The notes below the pieces were generated by a model that saw only the letters and a list, made by a program, of their open reading frames with translations, made no database searches and had not been told where the DNA came from. Position numbers and translations under genes: made by a program. From Minisyncoccota bacterium (GTDB lineage: Bacteria; Patescibacteriota; Minisyncoccia; Moranbacterales; UBA2206), in the NCBI GenBank assembly GCA_031291955.1, contig JARLIA010000014.1, positions 666 through 64,665 of the forward strand: a DNA stretch of 64,000 nucleotides, in the 5' to 3' direction. Shown here one piece after another: positions 5,679 to 45,865 of the stretch (within the stretch, counting starts at the first letter, position 1; every line of letters starts with the position of its first letter).

Positions 5679-6461
5679 TTATTTTGACGTTTGTGTATAA
5701 TTCTTTCTCAGTTTCAATGTAGCCCAAACCACTCCCCCGATCAACACTAAAATAATAATCCCCGCAATCCATTTCCACCAGCCGGAAGAGTAACCAACTG
5801 GATTAGTGTTGATTTTGGGATTGTTTTGCGAATTAATTTTGGATTGTTTCAGTACAGAAGCGAACTGTCCGTTTCCCCCGCTTTCCGGATTAGCGCCAAC
5901 ACCGGTCGTCTCATTGGAAACCACTGTTTCCCCGACTTTCGGCAAAGTCAGAGAATATATTTTGGTGTGTTCACTCTGGCTGTTGTTGTCATGGGAGTAA
6001 ATACGAAAATAGTATTCAGTTCCGGGCGTGAGATTGCCAAGACGCATGGTGTGGTTGTTGCTTTTGATATGGTCGGTTTTTCTGTCAGCCAGGTTTTGGT
6101 CGGTGCCGTAGCGGATTTCTGCGTCGGAGCTGTTGTTGGTCTGCCAAGTGATGTCGATTTCCGTGGGTGAAACGGCCTGGTATTTGACGGCGGAGATGTT
6201 GAGAGAAATAGTGTCGTTGTCGGAATCGATGGACGAAGAACTGCTGCTCGAACTCTGCGTGGCGGAAGAACCGTTCAATGATTCAACGCTGTAATTTTGG
6301 GATCCGGCCGAAGACGACGAAATGGCGCCGGTGCCTATAGTCCCGGCCTCGATGCTCCAGTTCTGACTGCTCATCGTGTCCGCCCGGCTTATAAGCGGGA
6401 AAAGAAGCAAAGCGCTCGCAAGGAAGAAATAGAGCTTTTTTTTGGCTTTGACATGGCTCAT
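5679..6461 (-). CDS. Secreted/anchored protein with Ser-rich linker, FN3-like beta-sandwich and C-terminal TM anchor
   Basis: It has a signal peptide and a poly-Ser run. The segment TPGTEYYFRIYS is FN3-like, and WWKWIAGIIILVLIGGVVW is a C-terminal TM. Confidence 0.4.
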   Translation of the reverse strand: MSHVKAKKKLYFFLASALLLFPLISRADTMSSQNWSIEAGTIGTGAISSSSAGSQNYSVESLNGSSATQSSSSSSSSIDSDNDTISLNISAVKYQAVSPTEIDITWQTNNSSDAEIRYGTDQNLADRKTDHIKSNNHTMRLGNLTPGTEYYFRIYSHDNNSQSEHTKIYSLTLPKVGETVVSNETTGVGANPESGGNGQFASVLKQSKINSQNNPKINTNPVGYSSGWWKWIAGIIILVLIGGVVWATLKLRKNYTQTSK

Positions 6462-7421
6462 TTATTTATTGCTGTTGTTAGGAGTGGTAGTTTCCGCAGC
6501 CAAGTTACTGCCGACAATGATTAAAACATCGGCGTTGGCCGGCTGGACTTCACCAGCCGGGAGATTTTGAACTTGTCCACCGACCGCTTGAGCAATTCGG
6601 CTCACAAGAGCGGAATCTTTCTGGGTCAGATCAACGACGAGAGTGTTAGTGTAATTGCCTTTGGCGTCGCCCGTGCCAATGACGGCTACGCCGGTGAGAC
6701 TGTTGAGGTTAGCCCGGGTATTACTCGTTCCCGCCACATTAGAGCCTTTTTCAATTATCACCTTTAAAGGGTTTATTGTGGCATTGCTGCTATCGGCAGC
6801 AGGAGTGGAATCGGTTTGTATTTGCATTGGGGATGATGGTGCCGGGTTTGCGGCTGAATTGGCTTGAATCGCCAGATTGCTTCCTGGTGAGTTTTGAGCA
6901 GCAGACTGATCAGCTGAGACAGTTTGACCGCTACTACTATTTTGATCGGCAAAAAGCGGGGCCACGTTCACGATCTTGTTGATGCTTGAACGATAGAGGA
7001 TGGCGACTTTGGCGTTGGCGTAAATCAGGATCTTGTCGCCATTCTCCGCGTTTTTGAAAAAAACCTGATTGCCGAGTTTGCTCTTGTCAGAGACAGTAGC
7101 AAGGGTAGGATTTTCTCCTTGCGGGAGAATCATGAGCTTCCCTACTTGAATCACCACCGACTGGGATTTTGCCTGGGTTAAGGCAACAGAACTGGGAATT
7201 TTTTTAAGAACTTTGTATTGCCGGTAATAATACGCGGCGGTGGCAATGAGACCGAGAAAAACCAGCCAGAATAATATTTTCGAAATTCTCCACCGCGAAA
7301 ATATTCTTGAAATTTTTCTTTTTTCTTTTCTGGTGAAAGCAGGCGCGTAATGCAACGCCTCTGAAGCCTGTCTTGCTTCTCTCGCCATGAAACGCTCAAT
7401 TTTTTCCGGATTTCTTTGCAT
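6462..7421 (-). CDS. Membrane-anchored hypothetical protein (paralog A) with low-complexity C-terminal region
   Basis: A basic N-terminus is followed by one TM. The conserved block GKLMILPQGENPTLATV...FFKNAENGDKILIYANAKVAILYRSSINKI is shared with 7439-7948. Confidence 0.5.
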   Translation of the reverse strand: MQRNPEKIERFMAREARQASEALHYAPAFTRKEKRKISRIFSRWRISKILFWLVFLGLIATAAYYYRQYKVLKKIPSSVALTQAKSQSVVIQVGKLMILPQGENPTLATVSDKSKLGNQVFFKNAENGDKILIYANAKVAILYRSSINKIVNVAPLFADQNSSSGQTVSADQSAAQNSPGSNLAIQANSAANPAPSSPMQIQTDSTPAADSSNATINPLKVIIEKGSNVAGTSNTRANLNSLTGVAVIGTGDAKGNYTNTLVVDLTQKDSALVSRIAQAVGGQVQNLPAGEVQPANADVLIIVGSNLAAETTTPNNSNK

Positions 7422-7438
7422 ATGGTTTTGTGGATTAT

Positions 7439-7948
7439 TTATTTGTTCCCTGCTTTGGAAGCAGTTGGAGTTGCGGGCGAGTTTTGAGAAGATGATGGAT
7501 TATTCTGGTCCATGATAAACGGAGCTTCTTTGATTATTTTGTTGATATTGGGCCGATAAAGAATCGCCACTTGAGCTTTGACGTAAATCAAAATTTTATC
7601 GCCATTGGCAGCATTTTGAAAAAAATCTTGGCCCTTCAGCTTGGTGATGTCGTTCACGGTGGCAATAGTTGGAGTTTCCCCTTGTGGAAGCTCAATCAGT
7701 TTTCCCGCTTGAGCAACAGGATCGGCTTTCGCTTTTTGGTATTGGTGATAGAAATATATAGCAACGCCGAGGATGATTACTATCACGAGTCCCCGCAAAA
7801 TTCTGGGAATTCTCTTTCCTCGAGTAATTTTGGTAAATTTTTGTCTTTCTGGTTGCTTCGACGGACGCGCCACAGAAACTTCTTCTGTAATCACCTCGGC
7901 CATATTTCTGTTTTTCTTGACCATGGACATTTCGATGTTGTCTGGCAT
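7439..7948 (-). CDS. Membrane-anchored hypothetical protein (paralog B)
   Basis: It has the same architecture and the same block, GKLIELPQGETPTIATV...FFQNAANGDKILIYVKAQVAILYRPNINKI. Confidence 0.5.
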   Translation of the reverse strand: MPDNIEMSMVKKNRNMAEVITEEVSVARPSKQPERQKFTKITRGKRIPRILRGLVIVIILGVAIYFYHQYQKAKADPVAQAGKLIELPQGETPTIATVNDITKLKGQDFFQNAANGDKILIYVKAQVAILYRPNINKIIKEAPFIMDQNNPSSSQNSPATPTASKAGNK

Positions 7949-8047
7949 AACGATGTCTATAAAAAGTTATTTTTCTCGCTAAACTTATTAATTCTCCAAT
8001 CCGGAAGCCGAAAAAGTTAAGGCGGCCAGACTACAAAATCCCTAATT

Positions 8048-11000
8048 TTACGGAATTTGCTGAAACATCCCTGTCAAATTGTGAAAAACAAATCCAGCCA
8101 ATGAGCCGCCTGCGTAACCATTTGGAATCTCTACCCAACCCAATAAATAATCGTTATAAGGTATCTGTGGGAGTGTTGCCACAGCTTGCGTTGCTTCAAT
8201 GCTCCCTTTGATAATTTGCGGTGAGTGAGTTGGGCTTAGCACTATAGCGACTTTCCGATAACATGTACCAGTGCCTGATCCCGTACACCACGCAAACGGC
8301 ACACCGGCGGCTGTGCAACTAGCGCTACAATCGGTTGTTGTATTTACACCAGTCAGATCCCACCAGTTGTCATGTGCCGTCCAATTATAAAATGTGCCAT
8401 TAAGAACCAGGGTGGCGTTGTTCGAGCTTTTCACGTAACCAGCATTTGTGGCGTTGGTAAGTCCTGCCCCATTGGCATTATCCAGTATGCCGTAGCCTTG
8501 GCTAGCGCCTTCTATCATATTATTCACCATCATACCTGTTTTCCAAGTGCTTGATGGGGGTGTTCCTGGAAAAAAGAGATCAGTTGTAAAACCTGAAACA
8601 TTATTACCTGATATATTAGTTTGTCCTGTAGTGACATCTATCCCATAATCCGCAGTTATACCATTTATTGTTTGACCGATGACTGTATTGCCAGTTATAT
8701 TCACGCCGTATGAAGCACACGTTCCGGTTCCGTTCCCTGTGCAACATGCAAACGGTACACCAGGAGCCGTACACTGTCCGTTACTTGTACTTGTTGCTAT
8801 TCCGCGAGTTCCACTTACATAATTATTTGAAATTTGTGTCCTTGCGTTTGTATTGATTGCATAATTCGTTCCAAGGCACCAATCTAGTAGTGCTATTCCG
8901 TAACCAGAACCGTTTGTAGTCCAGTTTCCGGTAACTACATTATTAACGATTTGTGTCCCAATTCCTGAAAGTACAATTCCTTCTTGTATATTTTCTACGT
9001 GATTTCCGTCCACTATCATATTCACAGAGTTGCGGTGGGAGTTTATAGCTTGCCCGCCATTAAGCGGAGGTAAGGCACCGCTAAACGAACACCCCTTAAT
9101 TGTAGGGTTCCAATCTAATTCATAACCTGCTGATGTAATGCCATTTCTAACGTTTATTCCTTTACTGTTTTCAATAGTTGCCCAATTATTTCCATTACTC
9201 AAGCTATAAGGATAGCCGGCTGGATAAGTTGTATCAGCACAGTTATACACTTCGTTATTTGTCATTAAGCCATGATCAGTCCAGTTAAAATCAAAACCGC
9301 CAACGTCACAATTAGTACTCTTGCTGTCCATAATAATTGGACTGTTAGCATATCGTATTCCAACAGCACTTTGTCTTTGTCCTGATCCTGCGCCTGTGAT
9401 TTTTACATTATCTAGTACAGGATTCTCTATAGGAATAATCCTAGTGAGAGTCATTACATATCCACTTCCCGCACTAATTGTATAATCAGTTCGAAGTCCT
9501 GTTTTTAATGTTATCGTGTTATTTCCAACAGATGCAATTGAGGACAGTTCGCTTGTTACATAATTTCCAGTTCCACAACCACCCCATGGCTGAGTGGATA
9601 TAATTTCCAGCATGTCACCAGGGGCAAATCCGGTTGAATTTGCAACATTAAGCGTTAGCGTTGTTGTAGGCACAAACGTATTAGTTACATCCAAAGGGCC
9701 GGTGACTGTGGTTGTCGTGGTTGTAACTGTGCCTGATATCATTAAAGCTGTATAAGGTGGGCCGCATGTACCAGCATGATAACCCGTGCAGCATCCATAA
9801 GGAGCGGCGGCGGCTGTACATGCGTTATTGCCTGTAGAAATCAAATTTACACAGTCAAGAGCCAGGTCTTTAATAGTTAAATTATTGATATTTGTATAAA
9901 CTATATACTCATTATCTTTGTAAGTTTTTGATACATCGCCTAAAAGTGTGCCTCCAACATTTACTAATGAATTACCGGCTGCTTGAAGAGCTGCAAAATC
10001 ATCAGTAGAATCATCTCCCTTCGCTCCAAACCACTCTGGATAGACCGTCCCGCCATTGCTGAACGTCACGGTTCCCGTCCCTGCAAATATCTGGTAACGT
10101 CCAGCGGTTGGTATGGACATGCTTAGCGTGTGTCCCGTAGTAGTGATCGTCGCTCCCTGCATTGGCCTTAAATCGCAGGTGAGAGCCAGATCACCCGTAA
10201 GCGTCACGGGCGCGGTCAGATAGACCGTTCCGGCAAAGTTCGCATCGGCTGTAAGTTGGGCCAGGGTGTTGGCGGTTATATACGTACCTCCTATTTTTAC
10301 CGAGCCATCAAATTGCGCATTCCCGTTCACCTCCAATGCCGCTTGGGGATTGGTCGTACCGATTCCCAAGTTTCCTTGGATCGCCACATTGCCGTCGGCC
10401 ATCAGCTGGCTAGCATAGAGCGAACCGAAAGTGGCGCCACCAACCACCGACAATTGAGAACCGGGAGACGTCGTTCCGATTCCTACTTGACCGGAACTGT
10501 TAACCGTCAGTCCTTCCATTCCTCCGCCCGCGCTGATATGGAGCGGATTGAGAAGCGATCCAGTGTTGGTGGTGATGTTCATGAGATATCCTGTTCCGGA
10601 ATTTCCAGTGGTATCTGAGAGACTAAAAAGATCATTCGAGCCAGTACTCGCGCCGAAAGTCAAACCAGCCTTATTGCTTCCCATCGAAAGGGTGGTGTTT
10701 TGAGTGGGATTCCCCAGTTGGCTAAAAGGCAGCGTTCCGGAGAGACTGCCGGCGGTGGTAGCTGTCGTTGCATTGGTTGCATTGGTTGCGGAAGTCGCGC
10801 TGGTGGCTGTCGCGGCGTTGCCGGAAATACTGATGCCGTAAGTGCCGGAGATGAGAGCATTAGCAGTCAGCGTGCCGGAACCGGCCGAAAGAGTTTGTCC
10901 ACTCCCAAGACTAAGAGCCTGATCCAATTTGGACGCGGTGATGGCGCCATTGTTGAGACTTATGGTAACACCGCCGCCGAGGATTGAGTTGCTACCGCCG

Positions 11001-11758
11001 GCAACAGTCAGGCCGGAAGAGCCGGTGATATCGCCCGTCGACTCATTGGCCCATTTATTGGAACTGTTCATAACCAAAACATCGCCCGCGGCCGGGTTGG
11101 AGATATCAGTGTCAGTAAGAGCCGAGAGAGTGGTCACGCCGCCGGAGCCGACTATTTCCGACCAGCCGGTGTTGGTAGCGGTGCCGGAAGTTTTAATGTA
11201 AAGCTTGTCATTGGTCGAATCGATAGCCATATCTCCCACCGACCCGGTCTGGACGCCATTGGGATCGCCAGTGCCCTGATAGACACTGGTGCCATTGACA
11301 GCATCGGCGTTAAAAGCGTAGGCGGCCGCACCGATCCGTTGTCTCGGAGACATCTCAACATCGGTGCCAACAGTGATGCCGGCGTAGTAAGTGTCCTGGG
11401 AAAAATCCACCGTCATCGTGTTGCCGGATCCCGAACCGAGGAGCACCGTAAAATTACCATCTTTGACAGCGACCGCATTGCTGTTAGCAGTAGTGTAATT
11501 GCCTGTCCAGACCGGCGTGCCGCCGGTGGCAGTGGTGTAAATTTTAAACACCATGTCATAATTGCCGTCAGTCGCGATAGCTCCACTGAAAGATTTTAGA
11601 ACACCGAAGTAGGTCAGTTCCTTGTTAATACCGGAAGCGGCTTTCACGTTATGGAAAACAAAAAGACCTCCCAAGAGAATCAGGGAAATCAAAAGATATC
11701 TGAAAAGTTTCGAATTCCGCGGTTTAATTAAGAGAGAGGGTAGGCTTGGGAATTTCAT
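8048..11758 (-). CDS. Giant secreted protein with tail-fibre-like repeats and a pectate-lyase-fold (right-handed beta-helix) depolymerase-like domain
   Basis: It has an N-terminal signal/TM. Tail-fibre-type repeats (VGIGTTSPGSQLSV, LGIGTTNPQAALEV) and the beta-helix signature YPEWFGAKGDDSTDDFAALQAA are present. Three Cys-rich repeats of the form CTA(A/P)GVPFA(C/W)CTG(N/S)GTGTC also occur. Confidence 0.6.
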   Translation of the reverse strand: MKFPSLPSLLIKPRNSKLFRYLLISLILLGGLFVFHNVKAASGINKELTYFGVLKSFSGAIATDGNYDMVFKIYTTATGGTPVWTGNYTTANSNAVAVKDGNFTVLLGSGSGNTMTVDFSQDTYYAGITVGTDVEMSPRQRIGAAAYAFNADAVNGTSVYQGTGDPNGVQTGSVGDMAIDSTNDKLYIKTSGTATNTGWSEIVGSGGVTTLSALTDTDISNPAAGDVLVMNSSNKWANESTGDITGSSGLTVAGGSNSILGGGVTISLNNGAITASKLDQALSLGSGQTLSAGSGTLTANALISGTYGISISGNAATATSATSATNATNATTATTAGSLSGTLPFSQLGNPTQNTTLSMGSNKAGLTFGASTGSNDLFSLSDTTGNSGTGYLMNITTNTGSLLNPLHISAGGGMEGLTVNSSGQVGIGTTSPGSQLSVVGGATFGSLYASQLMADGNVAIQGNLGIGTTNPQAALEVNGNAQFDGSVKIGGTYITANTLAQLTADANFAGTVYLTAPVTLTGDLALTCDLRPMQGATITTTGHTLSMSIPTAGRYQIFAGTGTVTFSNGGTVYPEWFGAKGDDSTDDFAALQAAGNSLVNVGGTLLGDVSKTYKDNEYIVYTNINNLTIKDLALDCVNLISTGNNACTAAAAPYGCCTGYHAGTCGPPYTALMISGTVTTTTTTVTGPLDVTNTFVPTTTLTLNVANSTGFAPGDMLEIISTQPWGGCGTGNYVTSELSSIASVGNNTITLKTGLRTDYTISAGSGYVMTLTRIIPIENPVLDNVKITGAGSGQRQSAVGIRYANSPIIMDSKSTNCDVGGFDFNWTDHGLMTNNEVYNCADTTYPAGYPYSLSNGNNWATIENSKGINVRNGITSAGYELDWNPTIKGCSFSGALPPLNGGQAINSHRNSVNMIVDGNHVENIQEGIVLSGIGTQIVNNVVTGNWTTNGSGYGIALLDWCLGTNYAINTNARTQISNNYVSGTRGIATSTSNGQCTAPGVPFACCTGNGTGTCASYGVNITGNTVIGQTINGITADYGIDVTTGQTNISGNNVSGFTTDLFFPGTPPSSTWKTGMMVNNMIEGASQGYGILDNANGAGLTNATNAGYVKSSNNATLVLNGTFYNWTAHDNWWDLTGVNTTTDCSASCTAAGVPFAWCTGSGTGTCYRKVAIVLSPTHSPQIIKGSIEATQAVATLPQIPYNDYLLGWVEIPNGYAGGSLAGFVFHNLTGMFQQIP

Positions 11759-12607: not shown

Positions 12608-15600
12608 TTATTTCAATCCGGCCATGACCACCACCGTAGCTTTCCTTTCGAACTTCCCCCACTTGACCAGACGGCCTTTCAAGGCCGTGACAACCGCCTT
12701 GATAGCCACGTAATACATAAGCTGGCGATAATAGAAACGCTGGAGCGGCAACCAAAACAGCAGTCGCCAATCTTCTTTGTGTTCAAGGAAAAACGGGATG
12801 GCCGCCGTAACCAGATCGACCAGCAGGAAGAATATATAGAAAATAAGAAATTTCTTGAAAGCGTAAAGCGGAGAAATGTCGCCGGCCGGATGAAAATAGG
12901 TCTGCCAAGCTCCCCAGAAAAGCGTAATGACCATCATTAGATCCATGAGAGGCGAGACGAGAGGAAAGAAAATCTGGAAGATAAAGATATTTGGAATGCC
13001 AAGAAAGCCCAGCGCATTGTATTCCTTTTTCACAGCCAGGTCCTTGTGTTTCCAGGCAGTTTGGAACATCCCATACATCCAACGGAAACGCTGCTTGATA
13101 AAATTTTTAGTGGAATCAGGCGCTTCGGTATAAGCAATGGCTTCGTCGTCATAGGCAACCTGATGCCCCTGACGGATAATGCTAAACGTCAGATCTGCAT
13201 CTTCCGCCAAAGTGTCCTCGGAAAATCCTCCAGCCTCCAAGATAGCGCTTCGCCGCCAAGCACCGACCGCTCCGGGCACCACCGTAATGCAATTAAGCGC
13301 TTCAAAAGCCCGCCGATCCAGGTTTTGACTGGTGATATATTCCAGCGCCTGCCAACGCGTGAGAATATTTATCCGGTTCCCCACCTTGGCGTTGCCAGCC
13401 ACCGCCGCCACTCTCCGGTCCAGAAAGCAGCGCACCAGCTTTTCGATCGTATCCGATCGGAAAACCGTATCCGCGTCGAGAGTCACAATTATTTCCGCTT
13501 TGGTCATCGCGATGCCGAAATTGAGCGCTGATGATTTCCCGCCATTTTCTTTCCTGAAGATTTTGACCCAGCCGTTTTTCCCGAAATTATTTTCTAACAC
13601 CGCCCAAGTGCCGTCCGTTGATCCATCGTCAACCACGATAATATTGAAATTCGGATAAGTCGATCGCAAAATGGAATCAACCGTCTTGACAACAACTTTT
13701 TCTTCATTGTAAGCGGGAATGATGACGCTAACCGAGGGTTTGTAGTGGACGGTTCGGGAAAGTTTCCGCCAAGCACCCCTCCGGGAATGAGTCCACTGGG
13801 CAATCGCCAGAAGTCCGATAAAAATGAACCGAGCCGTTCCCAGAATGATTCCAACCTTAAACATCAGCAGCATAAATTGATTGAATCCGGAAGCGACCTG
13901 GACCGTTATGTCGTTGGCATAAGCGATAGCTCTTTCCTCGAACGTAATTTTCGGCATCACACTGTCTCTCGAAATCCCGAGCAAATCGGAAACCGGGACA
14001 ATCTGAAATCCCGCCGCCCGCAATCCCTCGATTATTTTCGGCAAAGCTTGGACTGTTTCTTCACGGTTGCCGCCGCCGTCATGGAGCAAAACGATGTTTC
14101 CCTGTCCGTTCTTGGCGGCCGTAAGAACCCGATTGACAATCTGAGAAACGCCGGGACGTGTCCAATCAGATGGATCAATATGCATCGAAACGGTGTAATA
14201 TCCAAAATTACTGGAAGACAATGGCTTCACCTGATCGGGCGTGGTCGGTTCAATATCTTCGGCGTAAGGCGGGCGAAAAAGCAAGGTTTTGTGTCCGGTG
14301 ATCGCTTCGATGACCCGCTGGGTGGCGCCTACTTCAAAAACAAACTGGGCGCCGGTTATCTTGGAAATATCTGGATGAGTGTAAGTATGATTGCCAATTT
14401 CATTGCCGTTGACATATTCCTCTCGGACTATATCCGGACTGAAATTGGCGTTGACGCCTATTACGAAAAAGGTGGCCGAAGCATTCTCTTTCTTTAGAAC
14501 GTCCAAGATTTGAGGGGTATATTTATTGTCCGGGCCGTCATCAAAAGTCAAGGCGATTTTTTTACTGCCCGTCCCCCAGCGATTGATTACGTAGGGAGAT
14601 GGGTAGCTCATGATCTGAGTTTTTTTTATGAGTCCCGAAGCGGAATCATAGTTTATTTGGCGCCAACCGCCCTGGGGCGTTTCAGTCACCCGCAAAATCT
14701 CACCCTGACCCTGATAACTGATGTCATAACCATATTGCATATTGGATAACGCTTGGGCGGCGGAAGCGTCCAGATTTTTGTCATTTATAAAATCATTCCA
14801 GACGGTCGGATCTTCCGCTCCGAGCCGCCAAAGAGCGAACCCCGCCGGAGCGCCCGACCGTTCGGCGGCTACCATCTGGTCGTAAACAGAAACACCATCT
14901 AAAAACCAGACATGATGAAGAATATTGTTGGCGTCGGTATAATCAAAAGTCGGATTAAGCGACTGACTGTCGAGATTCACCGCAGCGTTCGCTTTTTTAG
15001 CTTCCTGGATCGCCTGCTCGAAAGTGAGATCAATTCCCGAACCCGAGGGAGCGGGGTTGTCTCCAGACCAGTCATAGCCATAGTTCCCCAGAGAAATAAT
15101 GAATTTTTTGGCTGAAACCTCGGAAAATCTGTTCGCAATTTCCGCCTCAAACCAAGGCTGGGAAGCGATCGGCCCGGGTCCGGTATCATAAACATCATGT
15201 TCGTCATATGCCATCAGGATCAAATAATCGGCGTTCTGACTAAGCGCCTTGTAATTGAATGACGAGTCATCCAGGGGCACATTCATGGTCACCTCCAGTC
15301 CCAGCGGATGGAATTTTTGATAAAGTTCCTGCATGAACAACACCAAATCGGGCTGATCCTGATTTGACACATTCTCAAAATCAATTGAAATTCCGGCAAA
15401 TTTATTCTGCTGGACGTAAGTTAAAAGACTGTCCGCTGTTTTGGTTCGCAAGGCCGGGTTTTCCAACATCGCGGATAGGCGCCCGCCGTCAAAGGCCTGA
15501 GTCTGATTGTTGAAATTATCGATAAGAGGCGTAATGCGCAAGCTGGGACGATTGGCTTGGATATAACCCCAGACATCCGATTGGTAAGACTGGTTGTAAG

Positions 15601-33091: not shown

Positions 33092-33155
33092 CAAAACAAA
33101 AATACCCGAAAAACGGGTATTTTTGTGGAAGGTTGCGCCTTTCGGGCGTCATTTT
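33092..33155. terminator. Tandem terminator hairpins downstream of the RM operon
   Basis: The hairpins are atacccg-aaaaa-cgggtat-tttt and gcgcc-tttc-gggcg. Confidence 0.5.
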
Positions 33156-33246: not shown

Positions 33247-33429
33247 TTATTTATATTTACGCACCCCTTTGAATTTTTCACCATTGGATTTTTGATCCAT
33301 AAATAAATGAGTGTCTGTATCTATTTTGACCCATCTTTTAATTTTAGGATTAAAAACCTGCTCTCTATTTTTAACTTCCCCTCTTCGCGCGTTATCTCCG
33401 AATGGTTTATTTTTCGCCATATCCATCAC
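33247..33429 (-). CDS. Small basic hypothetical protein (60 aa) overlapping the hsdS 3' end
   Basis: The ORF is present but has no assignable family. Confidence 0.3.
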   Translation of the reverse strand: MMDMAKNKPFGDNARRGEVKNREQVFNPKIKRWVKIDTDTHLFMDQKSNGEKFKGVRKYK

Positions 33430-34831
33430 CCCCTTTCTCTATAAATTCTTCAACCTTTCTTTTTGCTTCCTCTAATAATTCTTTTGATTTTTTCCGCGCT
33501 TCGTATGACTGAATCACAAGTTCAGTGATTTTTTTCTGGATTTCTTTTGGTAGAATTGGAATCAAAACATTTTTGATCTGCTGCGGTTTCCAGTGCGCAA
33601 TAACTGATCCGCCAGCATCACGCTCAGCTTGCATTTGACCAATTTGAGAATTCAAACACAGTGCCAAATATTCTGCCTCAACTTCTTTGCTTTTCAACTT
33701 CAGGCGCAACGTTCCGCCCGACACAATTCCTTGAATATCTTTTTTCAAAACAAAAGCAATTCCCGGGGTTGCATCTTTTGTTAGCAATATTTCACCTTTT
33801 TTTGGTTCAAAATCATCTTTCAATTTTTCATAAAGCTTATCACTTAGATATTTTTGATTGCTTTCCGTGATTCCGAATTTTGTCATGCTACTAACCCGGA
33901 TAAAAATCTTACCTTCTTCTTGATATTCTTCCGCCCCAACTTCAATTCCCTTTTTCATCGAAACTAAATCGCCCAACTTGTGCACATTATGTTTTGCAAC
34001 CCTATCTTCTATTATCTTATATTTCGGCTGAAAATATTCCGCATCGATTCGATGTGCAATTTCGATATCGGAAAGATTTATGATTGATGATAACTTTTCT
34101 ACATTATCAAAACCGTCCAATTCCAATTCTCCCAAAAGTAAGTTTTCGGCTTGTTGATATTGCGTTTTAGCTTTCTCAAATTCATCCAAGCCAGCCAACA
34201 CTATCATTTTTATTTTTTGTTGAGCTTCAAGATTAACTTCGGGAAGAATTATTTTTTCAAGGCTATACAAATTCATGTGTCCTTGAACGCCTCCACTTGA
34301 TCCTCTATCGATCTGAAATTTTCCATATTTTGAATTCAGAAAAGCGGCTAAATATTCTGGCAATAGATTCTCTTTTGGTTTTATCAAAATAATATCCGCG
34401 GAATTTGCAACGGGATGATTCTCTGTAACGACACTAGCATTGCCAATTGACCCACTTCTGGCAAGCAAGACAAACCCCGGATAAACCTGGCTCTTTTTCA
34501 GTTTTTTATGAAATTCTTCGTCAATATAAACAATACCATTTTCAAAATCTGTAACAAATTCATCAACGTTTTGTGTTCTCAAAAGTGGAACTCCATCATC
34601 GCAAAAATGGCTCGCCATAGAAGACACAAAACCAACATCAATCTTTGGCGCCATCTCCTCCAATGTTAGTAACTCAAATTTTTTAAGATTTTTTTCCAAA
34701 TCCAAATATTCCGGCTGATAATATTCAGCATCCATCCGCATCGCGCCTTCGAGTTGAGATTTTTGAATTATGGAAAAATTAGTCATAAAATTTTTGAAAT
34801 ATTCCCCACAAATGAACGTATTAATAGGCAT
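33407..34831 (-). CDS. hsdS: Restriction-modification specificity (S) subunit, HsdS-like with two target-recognition domains
   Basis: The conserved N-terminal block RMDAEYYQPEY and the central repeat RIDAEYFQPKY are present. The true start may be the internal Met (MTNFS...). Confidence 0.8.
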   Translation of the reverse strand: MPINTFICGEYFKNFMTNFSIIQKSQLEGAMRMDAEYYQPEYLDLEKNLKKFELLTLEEMAPKIDVGFVSSMASHFCDDGVPLLRTQNVDEFVTDFENGIVYIDEEFHKKLKKSQVYPGFVLLARSGSIGNASVVTENHPVANSADIILIKPKENLLPEYLAAFLNSKYGKFQIDRGSSGGVQGHMNLYSLEKIILPEVNLEAQQKIKMIVLAGLDEFEKAKTQYQQAENLLLGELELDGFDNVEKLSSIINLSDIEIAHRIDAEYFQPKYKIIEDRVAKHNVHKLGDLVSMKKGIEVGAEEYQEEGKIFIRVSSMTKFGITESNQKYLSDKLYEKLKDDFEPKKGEILLTKDATPGIAFVLKKDIQGIVSGGTLRLKLKSKEVEAEYLALCLNSQIGQMQAERDAGGSVIAHWKPQQIKNVLIPILPKEIQKKITELVIQSYEARKKSKELLEEAKRKVEEFIEKGGDGYGEK

Positions 34832-34950
34832 AATATCAAGCTGTGGATAACTCCTTGCATAATCATACAGCTATGGTATTATGAGCTTGGTACTTGTAAG
34901 GGCTTTGGCCCTCTCACGGTTAAAACGTATAAACCGTAGCAAGTGCCAAA

Positions 34951-35442
34951 TCAATCATCCTCCATATTTCCTGCATGCAGGATTTTTTTATTGTTAAATT
35001 TGTTACCTGAATTTTTTTGATTGTTTTTCCAAAAAGGAATTAGGCTCCAAAAAAATTTATTTCCACCTTCAATTTCTTTAACTATTATTTTTATTCTCGC
35101 ACCATTTATTATAGCAACAAACCCATAATAACTAACTTCAACCATTTTATATTCCCATCTAGAATTAATTTTTTGTTGTTCAAACTTCCTTGTTTCATAA
35201 AATTCTTGTAAGGTATTTGACTTTTCCAATATATGAGGAGCGAGTTTTAACAACTTCAATCTTATATATTGATCACTTTTTATTCGAGCCTTGTTTTTAT
35301 TTTTGAATTTCAAATGTTCCAATCCCTTCGTATTAAAAGAAATCTTTCCACCCAAATAAGGACAATGAATTTGGCCTATTGTTTTGTAATAATTTTCGGC
35401 CTCTTCTTTTACCTTTAAAAATTTTATTTGATCAATCTCCAT
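34951..35442 (-). CDS. Hypothetical 163-aa protein between the RM methyltransferase and the S subunit
   Basis: Its start overlaps the stop of the upstream gene. No motif was recognised. Confidence 0.45.
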   Translation of the reverse strand: MEIDQIKFLKVKEEAENYYKTIGQIHCPYLGGKISFNTKGLEHLKFKNKNKARIKSDQYIRLKLLKLAPHILEKSNTLQEFYETRKFEQQKINSRWEYKMVEVSYYGFVAIINGARIKIIVKEIEGGNKFFWSLIPFWKNNQKNSGNKFNNKKILHAGNMEDD

Positions 35443-37355
35443 TATTTTTTCATAAACTTCAAAAACTCCTCCGCAATTTCGTCTAGATCGTGATCAATAA
35501 TTTTCTTTCCGCCGGCATCATACATAACATTCCCCTCGCTGTCTTTTTTATAGATATAATCCCCTGAATTGTCTTTGCCGCCTTTCTTGGAAACTGCCAT
35601 AAAAATCGGATAATCTTCGGGGATTTTTTCATCCTCATTCCATTTTTGCAAAAACAGAACTGATGTTTTTGTGCCGGTGTGCGGTTTGAAGGTGTTGTCA
35701 TGCAGTCCCACCACTGCCAACAGACGCGCCTTGCTCAAAACAAACCGCCGCACATATTCCATCTGCGTATTGTTCAAAACTCCTTGCGGCAAAACGATTG
35801 CCATCCTTCCGCCGGGCTTGAGAAAATTAAGATCGCGTTCAATGAACAAAACGTCGCGTGAAACTTTGTTTTGATGCTTGGATGTTTTTTCAAAATTTTT
35901 GTCATGTTTAAATCCAAGATCATAACGATTCAAAATCACACCTTTGATCTCTCCAGCAAATGGCGGATTGGTCAGCACGATGTCAAAATTAAAGTCAGTC
36001 ATTTTTTCCTGGTTTCTTCGGTTCTCATCAGAATCCTTGAATGTTCGCAAAAACGGTCGGAATTTCGCATGCGCTTGTTCATTCCAAACTTCACTGTCCA
36101 GCGAGTTAGCATTGGTCACATTTGTTTTACCATCGCCTGCAATGAGCATCATAGCTTTTCCAATTTTCACTGAGCGCGGATCAAAATCAATTCCGTACAA
36201 ATGTTTTTCCGCATAATCTTTTTGCTTTGCTTTGTAATCATCTTCGAAATTTTTCTTGTTTATTTCTTTGTCCCACACATATTGCATAGCATGCAACAAA
36301 AATCCGCAACTGCCCGCAGCAGTATCAATGATGAAATCTTTTGAAGTCGGCGCCAGCATTTTCACCGCCATGTCAATCACATGACGCGGCGTGAAATATT
36401 GGCCTTTTTCGCCTTTAGCATCCAAGTTAATCAGATATTCAAAGGCATCATCGATCACCTGCAGATTAGAACCAAAAAGGCGATATTTTTGCAAAAGAGA
36501 AATTGCCGGCACGATGGCATTTTCCGGAATTTCTATTTCGTCATTCGACTTGAAAACATCACGCCACTGATTTTTGGAATCCTCAAAAAGCCGCTGAATA
36601 TTGTTTAGATTTTCCTTGTTAGAAGCGCCGGCAATCACCCGAAATCTGCGATTTTCATTTCTAGGCGTTTCGATTTCATCATACAGCTTGGCATAAATAA
36701 GTTTGAAAATTTCATCAAACGAATCCACGCCGCTGTTGGCCAAAACAACTTCTTGCAAATCATAAATGAGTTGTTGCAAATTAGGAATTTCATCAAGATC
36801 ACTATATACGATTTTCTTTGAACGTACATCATCAACCGTTTCGTTAAATTTGGGAATTTCCGGCAAGTCCTCAAAAAGATTTGGGTCGGTTCGTAAAATA
36901 TTATTTTGAAGTTTTCCGTCTGTCAAAACGAGAATTGGCGCACCGGTCGCATTGGCGTAGCTTTTCAATTGCCCCAGACCATCTTTCACGTCGGGTTTTT
37001 TCACTTCAACCACAAGATAGGGAGTTTTGCCGTCTTCACGATAAATCACAATGTCCGCACGTTTTTTCCCAATCTCTCGCCCAAATTGCACATCTACTTC
37101 CACATCCATCCGGTCAAGTGGATATTTATAAAAATTTAATAATTTATAAATCATGAGTTGACGAACTATCTCCTCCGGCTTAGCTACTAACTTTTTATTT
37201 CTTTTTAAACATGGCAAATAAAACTTTCCTTCTTTTTCAAAAAGATCCAAGACTTCTTCAATTTTAATTCCCTCAAAAACAGAAAGTCCATATTGCATAT
37301 CCGGATTGCGAAAAATTTTCCCCAAAATTTCACTTGTCTTTTTTTGATCCGCCAT
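35442..37355 (-). CDS. Fused restriction-modification enzyme: N-terminal HsdR-N-like PD-(D/E)xK nuclease domain plus gamma-class N6-adenine DNA methyltransferase (BcgI-A-like / Type IIB-IIG)
   Basis: The N-terminus shows RADIVIY...PYLVVEVKKP...APILVLTDG, matching the HsdR N-terminal fold. The MTase motif DIVLTNPPFAG is present. At 637 aa there is no helicase and no separate hsdR. Confidence 0.7.
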   Translation of the reverse strand: MADQKKTSEILGKIFRNPDMQYGLSVFEGIKIEEVLDLFEKEGKFYLPCLKRNKKLVAKPEEIVRQLMIYKLLNFYKYPLDRMDVEVDVQFGREIGKKRADIVIYREDGKTPYLVVEVKKPDVKDGLGQLKSYANATGAPILVLTDGKLQNNILRTDPNLFEDLPEIPKFNETVDDVRSKKIVYSDLDEIPNLQQLIYDLQEVVLANSGVDSFDEIFKLIYAKLYDEIETPRNENRRFRVIAGASNKENLNNIQRLFEDSKNQWRDVFKSNDEIEIPENAIVPAISLLQKYRLFGSNLQVIDDAFEYLINLDAKGEKGQYFTPRHVIDMAVKMLAPTSKDFIIDTAAGSCGFLLHAMQYVWDKEINKKNFEDDYKAKQKDYAEKHLYGIDFDPRSVKIGKAMMLIAGDGKTNVTNANSLDSEVWNEQAHAKFRPFLRTFKDSDENRRNQEKMTDFNFDIVLTNPPFAGEIKGVILNRYDLGFKHDKNFEKTSKHQNKVSRDVLFIERDLNFLKPGGRMAIVLPQGVLNNTQMEYVRRFVLSKARLLAVVGLHDNTFKPHTGTKTSVLFLQKWNEDEKIPEDYPIFMAVSKKGGKDNSGDYIYKKDSEGNVMYDAGGKKIIDHDLDEIAEEFLKFMKK

Positions 37356-37356
37356 A

Positions 37357-37998
37357 TTATTTGTTTATTTTAGAAAGATTTAGAATTACCTTGCCTTGAA
37401 ATTGAACTTCGCCGGGAATAATTATCATTTTTTCATAAGCCGGATTTTCCGGTTGCAAATATCTTTTTCCGCCATCAGCGACAAAGCGCTTTACAGTCGT
37501 GCCCGCATCCGTTCGCGCAATCACAATATCACCGCTTTTATATTCTTTTGATTCTTTGATAAGCAGACTATCACCATCATCGATTCCGGCATTAATCATA
37601 GAATCTCCAGAAATTTGAATAACAAAAACTCTATCTTTTGATTCATTTATTTTTTCATTTTTTAAAACTTTTTCAGATATTGGGAAAAAGGTGAATGCAT
37701 TAGCAAAAGAATCGAGATATGATCCGCCGGCGCTAACGCCAGCCATTTTAATCAAAGGATCTCTTCCAATTTCCTTATAACCCAAAGGCAAAATTCTTAT
37801 CCCTCTCGCCTGACCATCTTCTCTTTTTATATATTCCTTTCTTTCAAGCGTATCTAAAAAGTTTATAACCGACTGGTTCGAAGATACGCCCAGCTCTTCC
37901 TTAAAATCAGAAATAGACGGCGGAAAGCCGGAACTTTCCAAAAATGTGTAAATAAATTCTAAAACTTTTTTTTGTTTTGGGGTAAGTTTAAAACTCAT
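37357..37998 (-). CDS. lexA: LexA-type repressor (winged-helix plus S24 peptidase)
   Basis: A LexA-like N-terminal HTH is followed by a C-terminal S24 domain with ISGDSM (Ser) and TTVKRF (Lys). Its stop is 1 nt from the RM start codon. Confidence 0.8.
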   Translation of the reverse strand: MSFKLTPKQKKVLEFIYTFLESSGFPPSISDFKEELGVSSNQSVINFLDTLERKEYIKREDGQARGIRILPLGYKEIGRDPLIKMAGVSAGGSYLDSFANAFTFFPISEKVLKNEKINESKDRVFVIQISGDSMINAGIDDGDSLLIKESKEYKSGDIVIARTDAGTTVKRFVADGGKRYLQPENPAYEKMIIIPGEVQFQGKVILNLSKINK

Positions 37999-38073
37999 AT
38001 ACCCATTATATATGACTGTTTGTACACGTCAAGTTCTTTACATAAGGCTATTTATTCAAAACTGTTGATAACT

Positions 38074-38345
38074 TTACTTCTCCTCCCCCATCCCATACTT
38101 AAACTTCATCCCCAGATATGTACCGGCGGCGACACCGGCGGCATAGATGATGATCGCGACAAAGCTCCTTTCTTTGTCTAGCTGATCGATGATATTGTAG
38201 ATGACCAGCATTGTCGTGATCGTCACCAGAAATGACATTGAGACGGCCGGAGCGATTTTGTGTTTGGCGATATACCGCCAGTTGAGCGTCAGCAAAAAAT
38301 CCTGGAATATCCCGACAAAAAAATAGATTATAAGATAGTATGCCA
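38074..38345 (-). CDS. Small 3-TM membrane protein
   Basis: It is hydrophobic, and its ATG lies 2 nt after the upstream small ORF. Confidence 0.4.
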
Positions 38346-38347
38346 TA

Positions 38348-38524
38348 TTATTTTTTCCAATCCTCAATAACCAACTTGCTCCCCGATTTCTTCACCACCA
38401 CCTTCTGCTTCTCCCGCCATTTTAGTTCGCGGACGAGTTCGATCGGAATCGTGACGGCGATGGAACGCTGGCCGACTTTGGTCAGTTTCCGGATGTTTTT
38501 GTCTTCCAATTTTCTTGTGGGCAT
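38348..38524 (-). CDS. AbrB/MazE/SpoVT-type small DNA-binding protein (58 aa)
   Basis: The translation is MPTRKLEDKNIRKLTKVGQRSIAVTIPIELVRELKW..., which has the swapped-hairpin AbrB fold signature. It falls below the ORF-track cutoff. Confidence 0.4.
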   Translation of the reverse strand: MPTRKLEDKNIRKLTKVGQRSIAVTIPIELVRELKWREKQKVVVKKSGSKLVIEDWKK

Positions 38525-45002: not shown

Positions 45003-45865
45003 GATTATCTTCGTGAAACTACAAATTGATGTTCCCATCGTGCCTGCGGATTTCCCGCACACGACGAGCTCTAATGCATTTTTTGCTTAAGGATGTAGAT
45101 TTTCCTTAAACCTGATTCTTTCAAATGATCTTTTTTCATGACCATTTCAAGAATCCGGCAAAAAATTTCAAAGTCACCGTTCTTTGAGCGTAATCTCAAA
45201 GAATTACTTTTGAAAAATGGAATGATAATTTTTTCCAGATCGTTTCGATTAGCTACTTCAAAGCGATAACAATCTTGATGATTGGCCCGTTTATCTTTTT
45301 GAAAATAAACGTTGCCGCAACCGAAGAATTTCTTGAGTTCATAGAGGATTTCTTTATCTTTCTCTATGAGCTTCAAGAAAAATCTTGGCTCAACCTTTGT
45401 TCGCCGCTGAACTTTTTTCTTTGAATCAGGATCTTTCACGTAAGCCGTAAAGCTTCCCTCTCCATCGACTAAGCCAACGATATAATCTGGATTCAATTCC
45501 ATATGCATTGAGTGAATCCTTCCTCGCCGATGAGGCGAGTACTACGATTCAGCTGACTTCTTACGCTGCGTAAGTTTCATTATATGATCATATTATAACA
45601 CATAATCATAACAACGTAAGATCTCCCGGGGTCATTTAAGTTTCCGTTCCTGGCATTCCGATTGGCGTTTTTGCTTGCATTTTCCCCACGCTCACCACCT
45701 GTCCATGGGTCAATGCCGCCTTTTTCGTATCGGACTGCCATTTGCCTCCAGATCCTTCGCCGTGTTTCTCGCGAAACACGACTATCTTTCGGCTACGCTC
45801 TGATTGGGTTTCAGAGGAGAAGATTCTAACTTCTTGGAAATTTAAACTGCCCGGCGCTTTTATTG
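45003..45865 (-). mobile_element. Group-I-type intron in 16S, inserted near E. coli position 1400
   Basis: Exon sequence breaks between CTTGTACTCAC and CGCCCGTCACACC. The intron contains an in-frame LAGLIDADG ORF. Confidence 0.7.
45071..45508 (-). CDS. LAGLIDADG homing endonuclease (intron-encoded)
   Basis: The LVDGEGSF LAGLIDADG motif is present. The protein is 145 aa and runs in the sense orientation of the rRNA. Confidence 0.8.
   Translation of the reverse strand: MHMELNPDYIVGLVDGEGSFTAYVKDPDSKKKVQRRTKVEPRFFLKLIEKDKEILYELKKFFGCGNVYFQKDKRANHQDCYRFEVANRNDLEKIIIPFFKSNSLRLRSKNGDFEIFCRILEMVMKKDHLKESGLRKIYILKQKMH

Follow-up and report, generated by a model that had tools for sequence, protein, structure and literature searches.

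A 64,000-nucleotide (nt) stretch of contig JARLIA010000014.1, from the metagenome-assembled genome of a Minisyncoccota bacterium of the Patescibacteria, or candidate phyla radiation (CPR), contains an operon in which a lexA gene stands directly ahead of restriction-modification (RM) genes; this whole stretch is referred to as the window. Comparison with related loci indicates that the operon is probably a self-contained and horizontally mobile RM cassette typical of Patescibacteria, in which LexA would control a Type IIB-like enzyme composed of a nuclease-methyltransferase fusion (R~M) and a separate specificity subunit (HsdS).

Operon structure

The cassette forms a single minus-strand operon (38032-33092) running from a promoter through lexA, R~M, a 163-amino-acid (aa) gene (p163), hsdS and a 60-aa gene (p60) to a terminator. 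Its genes and 3' boundary are as follows:

37357-37998, minus strand: lexA, 213 aa
35442-37355, minus strand: R~M fusion, 637 aa
34951-35442, minus strand: p163, accessory gene of 163 aa, coupled translationally to R~M
33407-34831, minus strand: hsdS, 474 aa; the likelier start at 34786 gives 459 aa and matches the public gene call
33247-33429, minus strand: p60, open reading frame (ORF) of 60 aa encoding a basic protein and overlapping the hsdS 3' end
33092-33124, minus strand: intrinsic-terminator-like hairpin ATACCCG-TTTTT-CGGGTAT followed by a T-tract, which closes both the operon and the cassette homology

An earlier reading of the DNA from sequence only (the sequence-only reading) had proposed this order of five genes and had placed the fusion gene 1 nt from the end of lexA. 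All five ORFs are present at the positions it gave, on the minus strand, and the lexA/R~M junction indeed reads TAA-t-ATG, a 1-nt gap. The R~M/p163 junction is an overlapping TAATG, while 119 nt separate p163 from the hsdS ATG at 34831. No convincing internal terminator or promoter was seen in the interior of the operon. Homology to two related loci, L004 and L113, stops at 33121-33122, that is, at the terminator hairpin, and the whole block has a GC content of about 36%, against about 45% in the flanks of the window.

Linkage of lexA to RM genes

Among the 80 best loci of the R~M methyltransferase family in reference genomes, lexA abuts R~M in 38, all of them from CPR, with R~M identity as low as about 46%; loci from outside the CPR (Treponema, Neisseria, Nitrosopumilus, Anaerolineae, DPANN archaea and others) have R~M-hsdS only. 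Some of these non-CPR relatives carry a gene of 51-60 aa with an HTH_17 domain 2-3 nt upstream of R~M, and such genes at the same place fit, by analogy, the view that LexA occupies a controller position. The association also holds in the reverse direction. Three LexA homologs, picked for having no obvious contig shared with the methyltransferase matches, were all followed by R~M, cargo and hsdS, in three different neighbourhoods. A scan of metagenomes with the LexA alignment returned 68 informative loci, of which 55 have R~M directly downstream, and in six of the remainder different DNA methyltransferases follow LexA. The lexA-R~M order recurs in more than 100 independent loci, which places the arrangement far beyond chance.

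The metagenome loci without R~M have the same promoter and operator as those with it, and carry the following after lexA:

L147: a TaqI-like gamma-methyltransferase
L166: an MmeI-like methyltransferase, HsdS and a helicase-nuclease of the UvrD/PD-ExK type
L171, L184 and L189: beta-class N6_N4 methyltransferases
L125: another N6_Mtase
L114: a lone NYN gene
L155 and L156: decayed methyltransferase and HsdS fragments

L184 also has two tandem lexA genes with a perfect operator at each.

The two proteins appear to share a history. Across all pairs, LexA identity rises with R~M identity (Spearman rho 0.74); in a neighbour-joining tree all 39 LexA-linked methyltransferases fall within a single clade of 42 members, and the presence of LexA requires three changes on this tree as opposed to 21.6 when labels are shuffled. 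The GC content of the cassette is below that of its flanks in 28 of 30 loci, and that of lexA alone is lower in 27 of 34. The nearest relative of the window cassette, L110, is instructive: its LexA is 95% and its cassette 88% identical. L110 comes from a related organism: the housekeeping genes that flank its cassette have counterparts elsewhere in the window, at 64-79% identity, but the cassette itself has other neighbours. In the window, cassette homology extends from about 38079 to about 33121. The possibility, raised in the sequence-only reading, that lexA is conserved at this position independently of the RM genes thus finds no support: neighbourhoods differ, lexA co-evolves with R~M and it shares the low GC content of the block. 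By these comparisons, lexA is part of the cassette, as opposed to a fixed chromosomal site, and travels with the RM genes into different neighbourhoods.

A phage origin was considered and rejected, given that a scan of viral contigs gave no match to LexA and that the methyltransferase family was found on 11 viral contigs at less than 50% identity, none with LexA.

Other genes are found beside LexA cassettes at particular loci. AddA-like UvrD/PD-ExK genes or PDDEXK_1 genes occur in several loci, among them L040 (5296-9246, minus strand; AddA-like and intein-containing), L084 (6732-7850, minus strand) and L166 (9811-12621); lying divergent from the cassette or just after it, they might share a LexA-controlled intergenic region. 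In some genomes a second, divergent S24-peptidase gene of about 220 aa, with no LexA_DNA_bind match, is located a few genes downstream of the cassette, with a RhuM-like gene adjoining (for example at about 14671-15333 in the P0142 context and at 7298-7972 in L004).

The R~M fusion and HsdS

The R~M protein has a PF13588 (HSDR_N_2) domain at residues 60-168 and a PF02384 (N6_Mtase) domain at 300-590. The sequence-only reading had described an HsdR-N-type nuclease joined to an NPPF methyltransferase. The nuclease domain is present, as PF13588, the model then named, PF04313, being a related one; the methyltransferase half is borne out by the PF02384 match, with motif I around 344-352 and NPPF at 463-466, and is of the gamma-class N6-adenine type. 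R~M gives a full-length match to the PADLOC family MTase_I PDLC03034 (1.5e-184). It belongs to a very large family, with 7,680 matches and at least 577 reference-species loci.

RM.BsaXI (8w0p; E = 1.3e-25), a BcgI-like Type IIB enzyme, is the solved structure most similar to R~M. The match covers both domains but is distant, the nuclease domain contributing about 15 of some 93 bits. Alanine substitution of E73, D90, E105 or K107 of BsaXI abolishes cleavage (PMC11997821). These residues align to E86, D101, E117 and K119 of R~M, which are invariant in an alignment of diverse R~M homologs (A1), so that the catalytic D/E/K residues, whose absence would have pointed to an orphan M+S system, are all in place.

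The hsdS product matches PF01420 in two stretches, in agreement with the two target-recognition domains (TRDs) ascribed to it, and PADLOC Specificity_I at 7.9e-56. Its similarity varies widely between loci, and it can be aligned to close relatives at a conserved N-terminal region and in the C-terminal half only, from which we conclude that TRD1 has been exchanged.

No HsdR or helicase was found among ORFs of at least 450 aa in the window, which represents 64 kb of a 73-kb source contig, nor was any HsdR seen in about 150 related loci, where the large neighbouring genes sampled are housekeeping genes or have no family match. Plasmid relatives are annotated as M and S only ('N-6 DNA methylase' and 'subunit S'). 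A degraded or split Type I system was rejected on the grounds that an HsdR with helicase motor was found neither in the window nor in the scanned neighbours. Membership of MADS was likewise rejected: R~M scores 315 bits against a cutoff of 720 for MAD2 and HsdS 180 against 400 for MAD5, and other mad genes are absent from the operon.

Taken together, the closest solved relative (RM.BsaXI), the conserved catalytic tetrad, the separate S subunit with two TRDs and the missing HsdR support the assignment of R~M and HsdS, by sequence, to a Type IIB-like RM enzyme of the BcgI/BsaXI type, as had been proposed in preference to a degraded Type I system.

The Picosynechococcus plasmid pAQ6 (NC_010480.1, L191) encodes a 1,179-aa R~M relative at 5977-9516, adjoining a RelE/ParE toxin gene; its length would allow a single-chain R-M-S form comparable to Type IIB enzymes of the AloI or CjeI type.

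The lexA promoter and its upstream sites

The region around the lexA start contains the following elements, together with one further site within the operon:

38005-38032, minus strand: sigma-70-type promoter TTGACG-16 nt-TATAAT, with the highest promoter score of the region (11/12)
38012-38027, minus strand: putative operator GTGTACAAACAGTCAT, with the right half-site AGTCAT kept and the left half degenerate
38063-38071, minus strand: DnaA-box-like motif TTATCAACA, one mismatch to TTATCCACA, which follows directly on the stop of the preceding gene and lies 31 nt ahead of the -35 hexamer
34842-34850, minus strand: another copy of TTATCCACA, without mismatch, 10 nt ahead of the hsdS ATG at 34831 and 55 nt ahead of that at 34786

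The TTGAC...TATAAT arrangement upstream of lexA is conserved across loci. In the window the -10 hexamer ends 6 nt ahead of the lexA ATG; the same distance was found in 35 of 75 promoters, and 69 of the 75 have between 4 and 11 nt. With so short a distance to the start codon, the lexA mRNA is probably leaderless or nearly so, for which the lambda cI repressor mRNA transcribed from PRM provides a parallel.

Alignment of upstream regions from relatives revealed a 16-bp palindrome in the spacer between the -35 and -10 hexamers, CCGACTAtTTAGTCGG or ATGACTAwwTAGTCAT, with the core GAC-N6-GTC. The putative LexA box, for which the sequence-only reading proposed a search upstream of 37998, is a clear palindrome in relatives, its copy in the window being degenerate (4.7 bits); L110 has the same degenerate operator half. 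A weight matrix built from 31 loci was used to scan 1.23 Mb of CPR sequence, where 34 of the 42 sites scoring at least 14 bits lie at cassette lexA promoters, and a further 0.94 Mb, where the same is true of 62 of the 65 sites scoring at least 15 bits. These scans, which covered about 10 kb of flank per locus, gave no excess of operator sites away from lexA and no sign of a wider LexA regulon. Two weak matches in the window (23413 and 25460) both fall within coding sequence. By its position and near-exclusivity, the spacer palindrome looks like an autoregulatory operator, and its conservation within the promoter lends comparative support to the earlier suggestion of a new controller module.

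A further conserved motif of the cassette promoters, found 10-60 nt ahead of the -35 hexamer, is identical to the DnaA-box consensus (G)TTATCCACA(G). Of 39 reference-genome loci, the window being counted among them, 17 have the strict form TTATNCACA before lexA, as do 29 of 48 independent metagenome promoters, where about 0.014 per 124 nt would be expected; forms with at most one mismatch occur in 38 of the 48, against a background of 5.7%. The motif is found in either orientation, and its positions concentrate at about 10-19 and 40-49 nt from the operator on the upstream side. L110 has a perfect copy at the position equivalent to that in the window (38063-38071), and the motif was also noted at the equivalent position in L014, L034, L037, L061, L166 and others. 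Its distribution suggests a second, replication-linked input to the promoter. The box before hsdS was rejected as a general feature, being present in 5 of 66 loci, approximately the background rate.

The LexA protein

The two domains attributed to the lexA product were recovered as PF01726 (winged helix-turn-helix, wHTH) and PF00717 (S24 peptidase), with the expected serine and lysine at Ser133 (GDSM) and Lys170 (VKRF); both residues are invariant in the alignment of the clade (A3). The protein scores 141.1 bits on TIGR00498 lexA, for which the equivalog cutoff is 110.95, and aligns over its full length to the solved LexA structures 8s7g, 3k2z and 1jhf. Its cleavage loop reads S-A90-G91-G92 (SAGG). 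An Ala-Gly pair occupies the aligned cleavage site in 48 of 54 relatives, and Cys-Gly, as in UmuD, in two.

Accessory genes and surroundings

The slot between R~M and hsdS holds from zero to three genes, which differ between loci (for example L005, L012, L019, L048, L049, L071, L088, L091 and others) and include NYN RNases, DUF3800, an OLD-like AAA_15+TOPRIM protein, an RnlA-DBD-like protein, a trypsin-like protease, DUF4760 and a wHTH protein; many slot genes have no family match. In the window the slot is occupied by p163, which has a borderline LPD3 match and weak, RelE/CdiA-CT-like fold matches only; neither a PDB sequence match nor a PHROG match was obtained for it. Homologs of p163 also lie between the mod and res genes of Type III systems, overlapping the mod stop (L109, 6001-6513; L106, 6001-6495), and others stand alone among housekeeping genes. 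The p60 protein matches PADLOC candidate PDC-S38 (7.5e-26, over 55 of 57 profile positions) and phrog_12550 (4.6e-16), both families of unknown function; nothing on PDC-S38 was found in the literature searched. The gene is optional, following hsdS in few loci only (L004, L033, L062 and L118).

Directly upstream of the cassette are an AbrB/MazE-like 58-aa gene (38348-38524, minus strand) and a gene for a DUF5698 membrane protein (38074-38367, minus strand), the coding regions of which overlap. Elsewhere in the window a free-standing LAGLIDADG_1 ORF at about 45071-45502 (143 aa in the public gene call), in a stretch of 35-37% GC at 43-45 kb, may be another mobile insertion, and a 1,236-aa ORF (8048-11758, minus strand) has no Pfam match at E <= 1e-5.

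Comparison with known systems

The enzyme itself adds a member to an established kind of RM enzyme, Type IIB-like and of HsdR_N~HsdM plus HsdS composition. It shares with BcgI, BsaXI, BaeI and CspCI a chain of N-terminal PD-(D/E)xK nuclease and gamma N6A methyltransferase, a separate S subunit with two TRDs and the lack of a translocase, and BcgI-like enzymes consist of two R~M and one S (Loenen et al., PMC3874165), an organisation that the cassette matches. The similarity to BsaXI is nonetheless distant and the window protein shorter. What distinguishes the cassette is the lexA gene, for none has been reported with the characterised Type IIB systems in the literature searched. In domain architecture the Zymomonas mobilis ZM4 system HsdMSc is close: ZMO1934 (HsdR_N~HsdM) and ZMO1933 (HsdS) have the same Pfam composition and no HsdR, and the system methylates DNA and restricts incoming plasmids 5-13-fold (PMC8432527), but neither a LexA nor an accessory slot is described there. 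MADS provides the nearest NCBIfam relatives of R~M and HsdS (MAD2 and MAD5), although both fall far below the equivalog cutoffs and no other mad genes are present.

In its regulatory layout the cassette recalls RM systems with C-proteins, which likewise have a gene for a DNA-binding repressor first in the operon and an operator in its own promoter. The regulator here is a 213-aa LexA with wHTH and S24 autoprotease, as opposed to a helix-turn-helix C-protein of 80-100 aa, and so adds a potential DNA-damage input; furthermore, R and M form one polypeptide, and the logic of delaying R relative to M is inapplicable. Canonical LexA, lambda CI and SetR of SXT share the Ser/Lys self-cleavage and the palindromic operator over the promoter, but the GAC-N6-GTC operator has so far been seen at the cassette only, and what follows the repressor gene encodes an RM enzyme in place of repair or lysogeny functions.

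Type I loci can contain variable, often toxin-like or abortive-infection (Abi)-like genes between their hsd genes, such as PrrC and the Campylobacter rlo genes. The accessory slot resembles these in that variable genes are inserted among RM genes, and differs in its families (p163, NYN, DUF3800, OLD-like and others) and in its position, since it separates R~M from hsdS in a system of Type IIB-like character.

LexA does appear in reviews of RM regulation and of the relatives of Type I systems, but only in other contexts. A LexA head with operator, leaderless start, DnaA-like box and exchangeable RM or methyltransferase payloads was not found in the literature searched, which did not cover one 2017 study of a Patescibacteria SOS network (pmid 28618189); subsequent work by the same group of authors implies that this study described a LexA motif for these bacteria.

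Alternative explanations

Several observations weigh against a tightly LexA-controlled restriction enzyme. The window operator scores 4.7 bits, with one good half-site, where most relatives score 15-24 bits, and the window LexA has Gly at the aligned P1 position in place of the alanine usual among relatives; with a poor operator and Gly at P1, regulation in this particular genome may be leaky or slow. The 637-aa R~M lacks the C-terminal helical paddle of BsaXI, the alignment ending at BsaXI residue 626 of 916, and the paddle (D816/E823) is also required for cleavage (PMC11997821). R~M is 85-96% identical between named CPR lineages, which is unusually conserved for an RM gene and could point to a housekeeping role. 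A wider LexA regulon may exist beyond the scanned flanks.

The protein might instead be the housekeeping SOS LexA, with its real targets among repair genes elsewhere, in which case RM and methyltransferase modules would have landed repeatedly at a tolerated, moderately expressed site downstream of it. The score above the NCBIfam LexA equivalog cutoff, the lack of a second LexA in the window, the AddA-like or PD-ExK repair genes adjoining lexA in L040, L084 and L166, and the different methyltransferase families behind the same LexA, as expected of an insertion hotspot, all agree with this, and the GC content of the cassette tracks that of the host (rho 0.6-0.8), which implies long residence. 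We nevertheless judge it rather unlikely: lexA and the RM genes change place together among the housekeeping genes, in related genomes as well, homology begins 20-80 nt upstream of the promoter, lexA has the low GC content of the cassette, the LexA-linked methyltransferases form a single clade that co-evolves with LexA, and the operator is essentially confined to lexA itself over about 2.1 Mb of CPR sequence. This explanation is compatible with a mobile, LexA-controlled RM cassette, as a cassette-borne LexA could also be the sole LexA of its genome.

Two other explanations leave the linkage intact and differ over what the linked genes do. R~M and S could serve damage-regulated methylation or DNA processing, epigenetic or in repair, with the PD-(D/E)xK domain acting on the cell's own DNA. 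The very high conservation of R~M across CPR lineages is consistent with such a role, as are its linkage to LexA and a DnaA-box-like site, both reporters of DNA status, the LexA head before stand-alone N6_N4 methyltransferases in some loci, and the mere 5-13-fold restriction by the Zymomonas enzyme of the same architecture (PMC8432527). The exchange of TRDs and the variable similarity of HsdS are typical of arms-race diversification, however, the slot holds defence- or toxin-type genes (OLD-like, NYN, RnlA-like, DUF3800), the cassette is mobile and low in GC, and the nuclease tetrad matches that of a bona fide restriction enzyme, making a purely non-defensive function improbable. Least probable is that LexA is a constitutive autorepressor akin to a C-protein, in which self-cleavage has been lost or is irrelevant and no DNA-damage input exists. 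The Gly at P1 in the window subclade, the small HTH_17 proteins at this position in non-CPR relatives and the fact that buffering of expression requires the helix-turn-helix only could be cited in its favour; the invariant S24 Ser/Lys dyad and the Ala-Gly or Cys-Gly pairs of the relatives indicate purifying selection on the cleavage apparatus, and even SAGG still includes an Ala-Gly pair.

Proposed mechanism

We infer LexA-operator binding, RecA-dependent induction, subunit stoichiometry, double-sided cleavage, a role of DnaA and the functions of the accessory genes, and combine most of them in the following scheme for a LexA-controlled RM cassette. By analogy with BcgI and BsaXI, R~M and S would assemble as (R~M)2S; this complex would place methyl groups on a bipartite site and, where they are missing, cleave the DNA close by, with no need of an ATP-driven HsdR motor. 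LexA would bind the spacer palindrome and repress the whole operon, itself included, so that negative autoregulation would keep the potentially self-toxic R~M and S, along with the accessory gene, at low and buffered levels; here LexA would play the part that C-proteins play in classical RM systems. Self-cleavage through Ser133 and Lys170, stimulated by RecA on single-stranded DNA (ssDNA), would lift repression upon DNA damage, phage DNA replication or self-restriction, and this derepression would raise the levels of R~M, S and whichever accessory gene occupies the slot.

A broader proposal, which we put forward tentatively and consider doubtful as it stands, is that LexA has been co-opted in Patescibacteria as a portable controller of methylation and restriction, with RM genes and accessory toxins as the main, perhaps the only, output of LexA and RecA in such reduced genomes, and with a possible integration of replication status through DnaA. 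It draws on the occurrence of the same head, that is, DnaA-box-like site, operator-bearing promoter and leaderless lexA, on at least four methyltransferase or RM families: the HsdR_N~gamma-methyltransferase fusion, the TaqI-like enzyme, the MmeI-like enzyme with HsdS and UvrD/PD-ExK, and the beta-class N6_N4 enzymes. The operator is essentially restricted to this head.

Significance

The CPR bacteria make up a large share of bacterial diversity; they are mostly without CRISPR and probably depend on RM systems. Damage-responsive regulators of other defence systems offer a parallel case, namely CapH/CapP and BrxR/CapW of CBASS and BREX. The compact head of promoter, operator and lexA, with its exchangeable payload, might serve genetic work on organisms that resist cultivation, and the slot between R~M and hsdS supplies a ready list of candidate accessory, RM-associated defence genes. 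If our reading is correct, a self-cleaving LexA within an RM cassette would be a new solution to the control of a potentially suicidal enzyme, and would couple defence to DNA damage or to phage-induced ssDNA. The recurrence of the cassette suggests that these bacteria, with their tiny genomes, tie restriction and methylation to a switch of the DNA-damage type.

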